Below, piece after piece: positions 5,371 through 7,029 of a stretch of 8,067 nucleotides of DNA. The notes beneath the pieces are model-generated. The model was not told the origin of the DNA. It did not search any database and worked only from the letters and a program-made list of their open reading frames with translations. The first letter of the stretch is position 1. Every line of letters starts with the position of its first letter. This DNA is from a virus (Duplodnaviria; Heunggongvirae; Uroviricota; Caudoviricetes): IMG/VR virus record IMGVR_UViG_2703718825_000004; one strand, 5' to 3'. Position numbers and translations under genes: made by a program.

Positions 5371-5464
5371 TTTACCTCCTAAATCTAAGTATTTTTAGAT
5401 TACAAGATAATTTTTTTTAGGTCAATGCAATCTAAAATAATTTATATTCAATTTGCAGGAGAAA
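5371..5464. promoter_or_regulatory. OR-like divergent promoter/operator region between the cro-like and cI-like genes
   Basis: 94-bp AT-rich intergenic region. Inverted repeat AATCTAAgtatttTTAGATT at 5382-5401, and a second inverted repeat TTTTAG-N11-CTAAAA at 5415-5437. -10-like TATATT at 5443-5448 for the cI-like gene; TTGACC-N17-TAATCT on the minus strand for the cro-like gene. Confidence 0.6.
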
Positions 5465-6112
5465 ATGATGGAAAGCCTTGGCATCAGGCTTAAGAGACTT
5501 AGAAAAGATAAGGGGCTGACCCAAGTAGAACTGGGTAAGCTTTCAGGCGTGACTGGGGTTACTATAGGGTACTGGGAGAAAGATCTAAACGAACCAGGTA
5601 GCAAAGCTCTAAGTAAGTTAGCCCAGGCATTAGGAACTACTGAGTCCTATCTCCTATATGGAGTATCGTCTCCTGAATTATCTTTTGTACAAAGTACCTC
5701 AGGCACCAAGATCCCCTACCTTTCGTGGGGTGAGGCGATTTCTTTCCTAATCTTAAAAGGAGAGAAAACAATGGGAAATGTCGATAGGATCACCACATTC
5801 TTTGATGTCGAGGAAGGTGATTTTGCCGTTTCAATGCCTGATGACACAATGCATAACCCATCAGGATCACCGAGTATCCCAGTTGGTGCTACTGTGATCC
5901 TAAGGCCAGGAGAAAGTTATAAAAATGGCAGCATCGTCGCTGTAATAGTTCCGGATCCGCTTAAAAATGAACCATCTATGACTATAAAGAAATTAGTTAT
6001 TGATGGGAAGCTTGTGTATTTAAGCCCTCTCAATCCACGCTATCAGTCATCCTTACTTACACCAGAGTGTAAAATTGTTGCCGTAGCAAAAGGTGTACAG
6101 TTCAACTTATAA
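5465..6112 (+). CDS. Lambda-CI-like prophage repressor (N-terminal HTH_XRE plus C-terminal LexA-like S24 peptidase domain)
   Basis: N-terminal LGIRLKRLRKDKGLTQVELGKLSGVTGVTIGYWEK is a classic XRE HTH. C-terminal region has the S24 Ser motif (AVSMPD) and Lys motif (TIKKLVIDGKLVYLSPLNPRY, close to lambda cI [20 protein letters not shown]). The ORF track starts at TTG 5453; ATG at 5465 or 5468 follows AGGAG at 5457-5461. Confidence 0.9.
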   Translation: MMESLGIRLKRLRKDKGLTQVELGKLSGVTGVTIGYWEKDLNEPGSKALSKLAQALGTTESYLLYGVSSPELSFVQSTSGTKIPYLSWGEAISFLILKGEKTMGNVDRITTFFDVEEGDFAVSMPDDTMHNPSGSPSIPVGATVILRPGESYKNGSIVAVIVPDPLKNEPSMTIKKLVIDGKLVYLSPLNPRYQSSLLTPECKIVAVAKGVQFNL

Positions 6113-6164: not shown

Positions 6165-6207
6165 AATCTAGATTTATCTTGACTGAAAAACTAAATACTT
6201 TTAGATT
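6165..6207 (+). promoter_or_regulatory. PL/PdicB-like promoter with operator-like palindromes
   Basis: TTGACT (6179-6184), 17-bp spacer, TAGATT (6202-6207). Perfect 10-bp palindrome AATCTAGATT at 6165-6174. CTAAATACTTTTAGATT at 6191-6207 is 15/17 identical to CTAAGTATTTTTAGATT at 5385-5401 in the OR-like region. Confidence 0.5.
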
Positions 6208-6387: not shown

Positions 6388-6540
6388 ATGGATATGCTCA
6401 ATCTTGGCAACAATGAATCTCTGGTGTGCGGAGTATTCCCCAACCACGACGGCACGTTTACCGCGATGACGTATACCAGAAGTAAAACGTTTAAAACCGA
6501 AGCTGGCGCGCATCGCTGGTTAGCAAGAAACGCTAACTGA
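6388..6540 (+). CDS. Small protein, 50 aa (YdfA-like by position)
   Basis: ATG 6388 preceded by SD TGAGGT at 5-nt spacing. Translation MDMLNLGNNESLVCGVFPNHDGTFTAMTYTRSKTFKTEAGAHRWLARNAN. Below the ORF-track cutoff. The YdfA equivalence rests on gene order in the K-12 dicA-ydfABC-dicF-dicB operon and is not sequence-verified. Confidence 0.5.
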   Translation: MDMLNLGNNESLVCGVFPNHDGTFTAMTYTRSKTFKTEAGAHRWLARNAN

Positions 6541-6802
6541 TTAGCGCCAGTAAAAACAGGTTTCCACAGGTTAATTTACCCTGAAAAGTCAGGGCATAAC
6601 ACGAAAGCGCACGGCGAGATCCCTTTGCATATAAGTCTTGTCGTTAAATTTCTTCGACCGTGCGCTTCTGGTTGTGGCAATCCGCGAAATGGCGCGGCGG
6701 TAAGTATGGCGGGGTTATTCCTTCCCCCATTGAGGACACCGGGTTGTCAGGTTGACCATACGCTTAAGTGACAACCCCGCTGCAACGCCCTCTGTTATCA
6801 AT

Positions 6803-6855
6803 TTTCTGGTGACGTTTGGCGGTATCAGTTTTACTCCGTGACTGCTCTGCCGCCC
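6803..6855 (+). ncRNA. dicF: DicF small regulatory RNA (ftsZ-targeting sRNA of the Qin-type dicB operon)
   Basis: Sequence TTTCTGGTGACGTTTGGCGGTATCAGTTTTACTCCGTGACTGCTCTGCCGCCC matches the 53-nt DicF sequence as I recall it, followed by a T5 tail (6856-6860). It sits immediately upstream of dicB as in K-12. Confidence 0.85.
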
Positions 6856-7029
6856 TTTTTAAAGTGAATTTTGTGATGCGGTGAATGCGGCTGAGCGCAC
6901 GCGGAACAGTTAAAACCAAAAACAGTGTTATGGGTGGATTCTCTGTATCCGGCGTTAATTGTTAACTGGTTAACGTCACCTGGAGGCACCAGGCACTGCA
7001 TCACAAAATTCATTGTTGAGGACGCGATA

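Follow-up and report, generated by a model that had tools for sequence, protein, structure and literature searches.

In lambdoid prophages that encode the small RNA (sRNA) DicF, what does the untranslated and strongly structured sequence just upstream of it do? We addressed this question in a viral stretch of 8,067 nucleotides (nt) (Caudoviricetes, IMG/VR record IMGVR_UViG_2703718825_000004; hereafter the window), in which positions 6541-6802 (hereafter the segment) separate a ydfA-like gene from DicF. An earlier note, made from the letters of the window without database searches, had described the segment as devoid of ATG-started open reading frames (ORFs), rich in RNA stems and placed where Escherichia coli K-12 carries ydfB and ydfC, and had proposed that the stems either release DicF from the operon transcript or form an unannotated structured RNA. 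We find that the segment is almost certainly the untranslated leader of the DicF precursor, that its processing by RNase III as well as by RNase E is already known from K-12, and that the observation first noted is itself explained by the DicF literature; the new part is a conserved, portable domain at 6671-6786 that probably folds as a four-way junction with a pseudoknot. To the whole explanation (leader, fold and role together) we assign a probability of about 0.6.

Results

Origin and processing of the DicF leader

In K-12 (MG1655), ydfA is followed by ydfB, ydfC, 340 untranslated bases and then dicF, as the earlier note had stated when it placed ydfB and ydfC between ydfA and dicF. The equivalence drawn from this was mistaken: window positions ~6574-6860 align to the final ~290 nt of the K-12 ydfC-dicF spacer, with 92.8% identity to K-12-type genomes, and the window aligns nowhere to ydfB or ydfC. 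Because K-12 also has this spacer, to which the segment aligns, the segment does not lie where K-12 carries ydfB and ydfC; the two genes are indeed absent here, but the segment is not their replacement, and since they are missing from the prophage the leader adjoins ydfA. The order ydfA-leader-DicF without ydfB and ydfC was found in 858 of 5426 complete E. coli genomes, and a match to the 473-base query occurred in 4320 of the 5426, at up to 9 places per genome.

K-12 DicF occurs as a 190-nt and a 53-nt species (Ragunathan 2023, PMC10448788, confirming Faubladier 1990). The 190-nt species, whose 5' end lies between positions 813 and 814, is lost without RNase III and is stable in stationary phase, the 53-nt species requires RNase E, and the transcripts, of which a terminated (1146-nt) and a read-through (1608-nt) form are both seen, begin at dicBp with no internal promoter found (PMC10448788). 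An Hfq-enriched interval has also been reported upstream of K-12 dicF (PMC4152368). As the 190-nt RNA shares its 3' end with the 53-nt RNA, its first base lies 137 nt ahead of the start of DicF; carried over to the window, this would place the RNase III end of long DicF at about 6665, within the 3' arm of a perfect 10-base-pair (bp) stem and 3 bp from the base of that arm. The K-12 dicF annotation (53 nt) aligns to 6803-6855, and because its 5' end falls on U6803 the RNase E cut would be U6802/U6803, the exact 3' border of the segment, at a junction (AAU/UUUCUGG) that is the same in the window and in K-12. RNase E is said to prefer RN/WUU, a rule ascribed to Chao et al. 2017, to which AAU/UUU conforms. 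The proposal that the segment holds processing determinants of DicF was therefore borne out, since both the RNase III end of the 190-nt species and the RNase E end of the 53-nt species lie in the homologous K-12 leader. An internal promoter as the source of the 190-nt species was considered and rejected, as none has been found experimentally in K-12 and a promoter scan predicted no sigma-70-like promoter within 6541-6802.

The stems that had drawn attention to the segment are genuine and exceed chance. The perfect 10-bp stem (AAGCGCACGG at 6605-6614 with CCGTGCGCTT at 6658-6667) is present as described; a perfect stem of at least 10 bp arose in 1.9% of 1000 dinucleotide-preserving shuffles of 6541-6802, and one accompanied by a second stem of at least 9 bp in none of the 1000. 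The 9-bp stem also exists, although its 5' arm had been placed one base off and is GGGTTGTCA at 6741-6749, pairing with TGACAACCC at 6769-6777; it is not a lone processing signal directly 5' of DicF but arm P4 of the four-way junction, ending 26 nt before DicF. The RNA of 6541-6860 as a whole is more stable than its own shuffles (z = -3.73). No ATG-started plus-strand ORF of at least 20 codons lies inside the segment, as had been stated, and its ORFs, of 21-48 codons, use TTG or GTG starts. The only matches from Rfam 15 were chance-level ones at 6535-6602 (E = 2-7), whereas 6603-6802 had none. The DicF model RF00039 covers 6804-6855 alone without any match inside 6541-6802; the segment is the leader and not the small RNA itself.

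A predicted four-way-junction domain in long DicF

The suggestion of an unannotated structured RNA was right for part of the segment: positions 6671-6786 belong to no Rfam family, and covariation supports a fold in which four helices (P1 to P4) probably form a four-way junction, with a pseudoknot joining the internal loop of P3 to the 19-nt loop of P4 (Table 1). In an alignment of 62 distinct copies from viral contigs (A3), 96.2% of the cells are paired and 9 pairs have changed on both sides, a result reached in 0 of 500 shuffles and compared with 34-56% pairing in slid controls. Two alignments fitted with a covariance model gave 95.5% and 96.0% pairing with 9 and 10 such pairs, respectively, the latter (A6) being reached in 1 of 500 shuffles; across the three alignments, 0-2 of 500 shuffles reached the observed pairing and slid controls gave 33-60%. 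The both-side changes fall in five helices. The stem of P3b occurs in at least five sequences (CGGGG/CCCCG, CUGGGG/CUCCAG, CAGGUG/CACCUG, CAGGGG/CUCCUG and CUGGG/CCCAG), with a loop that stays C/U-rich, and the pseudoknot pair 6705/6760 is UA in 59, CG in 10 and UG in 3 of 72 sequences and unpaired in none. Its C-G form is found in phage P1-like copies and, independently, in three lambdoid DicF-type copies from metagenomes (L144, L150 and L170), which were detected by a scan that left the 5' partner base unconstrained. Outside the pseudoknot strand, the P4 loop is near-invariant (GGUUGACCAUNCGC). An RNAalifold consensus on a MAFFT alignment mixed helix P1 with an alternative GGUUGU/ACAACC pairing and was not used.

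Two further observations concern the core. A perfect 8-bp helix between GCGGGGUU (6709-6716) and AACCCCGC (6772-6779) would rival P3b and P4; since neither the L045 type nor the phage P1 type retains it, it is probably non-functional. The core string CAUUGAGGACAC (6728-6740) resembles the dicB ribosome-binding region CAUUGUUGAGGACGC (7012-7026), and UCCUU in the P3b loop can pair with GAGGA, a motif that several groups lack in the core. A tRNA-like cloverleaf was also considered and set aside: the window holds no gene according to ARAGORN, 6150-7040 matches neither tRNA nor tmRNA of Rfam even at E <= 10, and no conserved CCA follows helix P1.

The hairpin around the transferred RNase III site

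A long imperfect hairpin of ~22 pairs has the 10-bp stem at its centre and appears in each of the minimum free energy (MFE) folds made, those of the window, of K-12, of an upstream variant (b) and of the cdtI type. Among 30 distinct sequences of the DicF group, 96.7% of the cells are paired, compared with 31-37% in slid controls, and 9 pairs vary on one side with pairing kept, while 0 have changed on both sides. Upstream variant b has CACAAC for CAUAAC opposite GUUGUG, which turns a U.G into a C-G pair, and the cdtI/Stx2c group builds an equivalent helix from other sequence (GCAACG..GAGGGCAU with GUGCUCUC..CGUUGU); these two cases add support for the hairpin at the level of the helix. We found no earlier description of the junction domain in the literature, and the 1990 DicF paper may already have drawn the RNase III hairpin.

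Spread of the core and its payloads

In a search of a phage collection, window positions ~6671-6794 were the only part common to more distant phages, and the flanks did not align. Identity of this core is 88.7% in cdtI/Stx2c phages, 82.6% in Salmonella phage F1055 and 77.8% in phage P1 (77.8-82% across P1/P7), and the Rfam DicF model does not match the bodies that follow the core (payloads) in cdtI, F1055 or phage P1. Because the distant phages share the core while Rfam DicF misses their payloads, the core is the more conserved of the two. The covariance model found exactly one copy in mEp460, the sole phage genome scanned in full, and model R1 found no copy in the HK022 immunity region; a narrow DicF pattern scan of genome contigs returned 7 loci. 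The element keeps a constant strand and place relative to promoter and terminator, an intrinsic terminator follows helix P1 by 42-88 nt in 120 of the 120 copies with enough downstream sequence, and mosaic boundaries flank the core on both sides. The payloads comprise 36 distinct sequences in about ten classes, among them DicF itself, forms with the DicF seed kept or changed, and the cdtI, F1055 and phage P1 types, which looks like a family of sRNAs in the DicF position with swapped seeds. Differing seed-plus-terminator bodies after the core (window equivalent 6787-6860) were seen at loci L011, L012, L014, L034, L039, L045, L069, L108 and L010. The cdtI payload was considered as AgvB-like for its CACAAC string and rejected, as AgvB lies at the PR' moron site, there is no Rfam AgvB match at the gathering score, and CACAAC is the 3' strand of helix P1.

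In phage P1, the core match overlaps an annotated "dicF-like region" just past the C1-controlled Pban promoter. The core begins ~20 nt after the Pban start, and a terminator and then tRNA genes and ban follow; because of this short distance, phage P1 needs no RNase III hairpin to obtain a 5'-terminal core. The matching locus (L010 2486-2654; NC_005856 68724-68892) has no DicF match at E <= 10; what it resembles is the leader core (P3-P4), and the terminator hairpin that comes next is unrelated. P1-type copies were found on 503 plasmids of Escherichia, Salmonella, Klebsiella and Shigella. Judged by this distribution, the junction domain is a portable module of lambdoid and P1-like phages.

Features of the window

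The window, part of a lambdoid prophage, matches E. coli E2865 (NZ_AP018808.1) at 100% identity, and the annotation of that record agrees with the gene order found here. The segment sits in the early-left operon, in the order repressor, promoter, ydfA, leader, dicF, dicB, ydfD, exo, xis and int, and begins directly after the stop codon of the ydfA-like gene; dicB and a ydfD-like gene follow DicF, and according to the annotation of the identical record exo, xis and int lie beyond the window. DicF itself was confirmed by Rfam RF00039 (76.7 bits, 6804-6855) and ends in a terminator consisting of a hairpin and a T-run. The untranslated leader of ydfA has no Rfam match. Elsewhere in the window, the dicF-dicB spacer (6867-7007, plus strand) shows a weak Rfam STnc100 match (35.5 bits, E = 6.5e-6) below the gathering score of 47; STnc100 and PasD have been connected as prophage small RNAs (2026 preprint). 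A hok/sok-type toxin-antitoxin locus lies at 33-357 on the minus strand (Rfam sok at 183-357, 114.9 bits), with hokD annotated in the identical record.

Table 1. Positions of the RNA elements and neighbouring features in the window.
Feature	Positions	Strand	Basis or remark
LexA-type repressor gene with its own terminator	5453-6112	+	
PL-like promoter	6179-6207	+	promoter scan
Untranslated GC-rich leader, ~180 nt, from PL-like promoter to ydfA start codon	6208-6387	+	
ydfA-like DUF1391 gene, ORF of 50 amino acids	6388-6540	+	"DUF1391 family protein" in NZ_AP018808.1
Junction spacer between ydfA and conserved leader	6541-6578	+	loose resemblance to K-12 only; megablast match begins at 6574 (query position 187)
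Small hairpin CCCUGA-AAAG-UCAGGG, 6-bp stem, AAAG tetraloop	6579-6594	+	
Long imperfect hairpin, putative RNase III substrate	6595-6676	+	MFE folds and pair counts
Helices of the long hairpin	6595-6600/6671-6676, 6602-6603/6669-6670, 6605-6614/6658-6667, 6615-6618/6653-6656		tip variable
Putative RNase III cut G6664/C6665	6664-6665	+	length arithmetic from K-12, ~5 nt uncertainty; L001 2246 aligned to window C6665
Predicted four-way-junction domain, 116 nt, 5' body of long DicF	6671-6786	+	
Helix P1	6671-6678/6779-6786		
Helix P2	6682-6686/6693-6697		
Helix P3a	6699-6701/6738-6740		
Helix P3b	6710-6714/6725-6729		
Helix P4 (the 9-bp stem)	6741-6749/6769-6777		
Pseudoknot 5' strand GUAUGG, in P3 internal loop	6704-6709	+	pairs with 6756-6761
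Pseudoknot 3' strand CCAUAC, within the 19-nt P4 loop	6756-6761	+	
U/A-rich single-stranded linker, ending at the RNase E cut	6787-6802	+	
DicF, 53 nt	6803-6855; with terminator U-tract to 6860	+	

Discussion

A model for the release of DicF

We propose that the operon transcript would first fold the 6595-6676 hairpin, which RNase III would cleave at about G6664/C6665, a cut known in K-12 and transferred to the window. Because 6671-6676 is both the base of this hairpin and the 5' strand of helix P1, the cut would free these bases, allowing 6671-6786 to close into a four-way junction locked by the loop-loop pseudoknot; we infer in this way a switch from hairpin base to helix P1. Transcription ending at the DicF terminator would then yield the stable 190-nt long DicF with its 5' end tucked beside helix P1, and RNase E, as known in K-12, would cleave the exposed U-rich linker at U6802/U6803 to give the 53-nt Hfq-dependent DicF. 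That the domain stabilises the precursor and presents the linker to RNase E, thereby gating maturation, we suggest only tentatively. More speculative, and in our view rather unlikely, is that the domain acts as an undescribed autonomous "small-RNA launch pad", which lambdoid and P1-like phages would set before a terminator and fit with interchangeable seeds. Through its invariant loops it would capture a host factor, be it RNA polymerase, RNase E, Hfq or the ribosome, and so control read-through or the timed release of sRNAs instead of serving as a passive leader.

Several observations weigh against this account of leader, fold and role. P2 shows no covariation, the effective number of sequences is 1.3, a shallow diversity, and many of the both-side changes come from few lineages (P1-like and cdtI-like). 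The isolated core is no more stable than its shuffles (z = -0.49), and the unconstrained MFE structure of 6667-6860 takes another fold at -69.9 kcal/mol, compared with -62.9 kcal/mol for the covariation fold plus terminator with the pseudoknot uncounted. Given the lack of covariation in P2, the shallow diversity and the unremarkable stability of the isolated core, the fold is probable rather than proven. The long hairpin shows one-sided changes only within the DicF group, and its RNase III position is a K-12 value carried over by arithmetic, accurate to perhaps 5 nt. Moreover, three deletion variants (L021, L069 and L170) have lost the hairpin's 3' arm together with the P1 5' strand, L170 also the 5' strand of P2, and all three keep P3-P4, the pseudoknot and the payload; the deletions were apparently joined at a repeated CGAAA/CGCGAAA motif (window equivalents 6602-6606 and 6685-6689), and either such copies are in decay or they can do without what was lost. 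The role in stability and RNase E gating is our best guess.

Alternative explanations

The position of the domain, in an early operon and always with an intrinsic terminator 42-88 nt further on, would also suit a put-like, cis-acting RNA that modifies RNA polymerase or the terminator. Such an RNA would either allow read-through into dicB, exo, xis and int (in phage P1, into the tRNA genes and ban) or determine what share of the transcripts terminates and what share reads through. Such an element would fit the phage P1 arrangement, with the domain ~20 nt past the Pban start and ahead of the terminator that precedes the tRNA genes and ban, the lack of an annotated N-like gene between repressor and element in E2865, mEp460 and cdtI, and the occurrence of both transcripts in K-12. 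However, neither putL nor putR is homologous (GCGCGGCGG and ACCAUGCG, the only strings in common, are confined to putL and stand in reversed order), the single copy in mEp460, the one genome searched in full, has no right-operon twin, and the core pairs with the 3' arm of the terminator no more strongly than shuffled sequences do, a pairing left uncompensated in L039, so that we consider a put-like element clearly unlikely. We judge it similarly improbable that the domain is itself a regulator or a protein-binding RNA, with the P3b loop pairing to a Shine-Dalgarno sequence (dicB GAGGA at 7020-7024) or the domain loading Hfq, and DicF merely riding along. The loop is C/U-rich in all groups (UUCCU, CCUCC or CUCCU) on a stem that varies freely, the P4 loop and the GCGGCGGUAAGUAUGG stretch are near-invariant beyond the needs of a nuclease site, and the high conservation of the core relative to its payload and the stability of the 190-nt species in stationary phase would both be expected; but the P3b loop and the dicB ribosome-binding site are predicted to form just a weak duplex (-6.5 kcal/mol), the motif in the loop is a short, low-complexity one, and phage P1 has no dicB downstream.

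A competing fold of long DicF, in which 6691-6715 pairs with the 3' half of DicF (6833-6855) as a sequestering or antiterminator structure or as an RNase III substrate of ~21 bp, is the MFE fold of both 6541-6860 and 6667-6860. We regard it as a remote prospect, because the complementarity barely departs from shuffles (z = -1.5 to -1.8, reached by 40 and 23 of 500), it is missing from the other payload types, a GGUGG/CCACC change in the L039 terminator is unmatched in the core, and the fold would break P2, P3 and the pseudoknot, which comparative data support. More remote still is that the conservation has DNA-level causes (a homology patch for modular exchange, or recent spread) and no RNA function: the mosaic boundaries on either side of the core and the more than 90% identity of most copies are what one would then expect, but substitutions favour kept base pairs, with both-side changes in five helices, indels cluster in the P3b loop, and strand and position are constant relative to promoter and terminator. 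Finally, we give almost no credence to the segment being a lambda-type nut site for an N-like antiterminator or coding for diverged ydfB/ydfC-like proteins. The hairpin CCCTGA/TCAGGG (6579-6584 with 6589-6594), which the earlier note had called boxB-like, exists and has nine bases in common with lambda boxB (CCCUGAAAA at 6579-6587), but the label fails: the lambda boxB pattern (GCCCU/AGGGC with a GAAAA or GAAGA loop) has no match at 6579-6594 within 3 mismatches, and the only match to boxA (YGCUCUUWA) in the window at <= 1 mismatch lies at 1883-1891 on the minus strand, with none near the segment. This hairpin shows one compensatory variant (CUCUGA/UCAGAG), retains 4 bp in the commonest K-12 type, is absent from upstream variant b and appears dispensable, and the annotation of the identical record (NZ_AP018808.1) shows no N gene, although no protein search was made. 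As for coding, a 48-codon TTG ORF does lie at 6625-6771; against this, no frame is open in all copies of the core, whose length classes (124-130 nt, and 150 nt) and frequent 1-nt indels in P3b break every frame, and the K-12 ydfB and ydfC genes lie upstream of the homologous spacer.

Relation to known systems and significance

The leader described here shares with that of the K-12 Qin dicBF operon its homologous sequence (92.8% over 6574-6860), position, strand, hairpin at the RNase III end and RNase E junction, and differs in that the present prophage is without ydfB and ydfC and has a LexA-type cleavable repressor instead of DicA. The K-12 accounts we found give the cuts but neither a secondary structure nor conservation outside Qin-like prophages. 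The phage P1 "dicF-like region" (misc_feature 68791-68892, NC_005856), in the leader of the ban operon, also carries this junction domain, which model R1 scores at 92.5 bits, with an intrinsic terminator after it, whereas its payload is not DicF (Rfam negative at E <= 10), it has no RNase III hairpin, and the domain stands ~20 nt past a promoter. The lambda N leader and T7 R1.1 are RNase III processing hairpins of phage early transcripts; there, as here, a long imperfect hairpin of an early operon is cut by host RNase III to set a 5' end, but here the hairpin base shares bases with helix P1 of a folded domain downstream, and cleavage yields an sRNA precursor rather than an mRNA. HK022 put (PMC9378689) is likewise a structured RNA early in an early operon, upstream of terminators and with no N gene nearby, but it consists of two stems of ~70 nt against a 116-nt four-way junction, shows no homology of sequence or architecture when compared by eye, and has left and right copies where mEp460, the one genome covered in full, has one. 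As with CpxQ and SroC, which come from mRNA 3' ends or from within operons (reviewed in PMC9438474), RNase E frees an Hfq-dependent sRNA ending at an intrinsic terminator. The AgvB and AsxR anti-sRNAs of enterohaemorrhagic E. coli (EHEC) (PMC4104026) also reuse a constant module with variable seeds; they lie at the PR' moron site and keep their 3' terminator region constant, whereas here it is a large 5' domain that stays constant and is removed on maturation.

DicF blocks cell division, rewires sugar metabolism and turns on EHEC virulence genes, and because it acts on these processes the timing and manner of its release from the precursor set its dose. The comparative result provides a concrete structural model for the 190-nt precursor and shows that the conserved unit across many lambdoid prophages and P1-type phage-plasmids is the leader core and not DicF, with differing sRNAs attached to it, so that the "dicF-like" label in phage P1 denotes the leader and not a DicF gene. 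Should the core prove to have its own function, this would explain how phages swap sRNA seeds, and the core would be a natural scaffold for engineered sRNAs.

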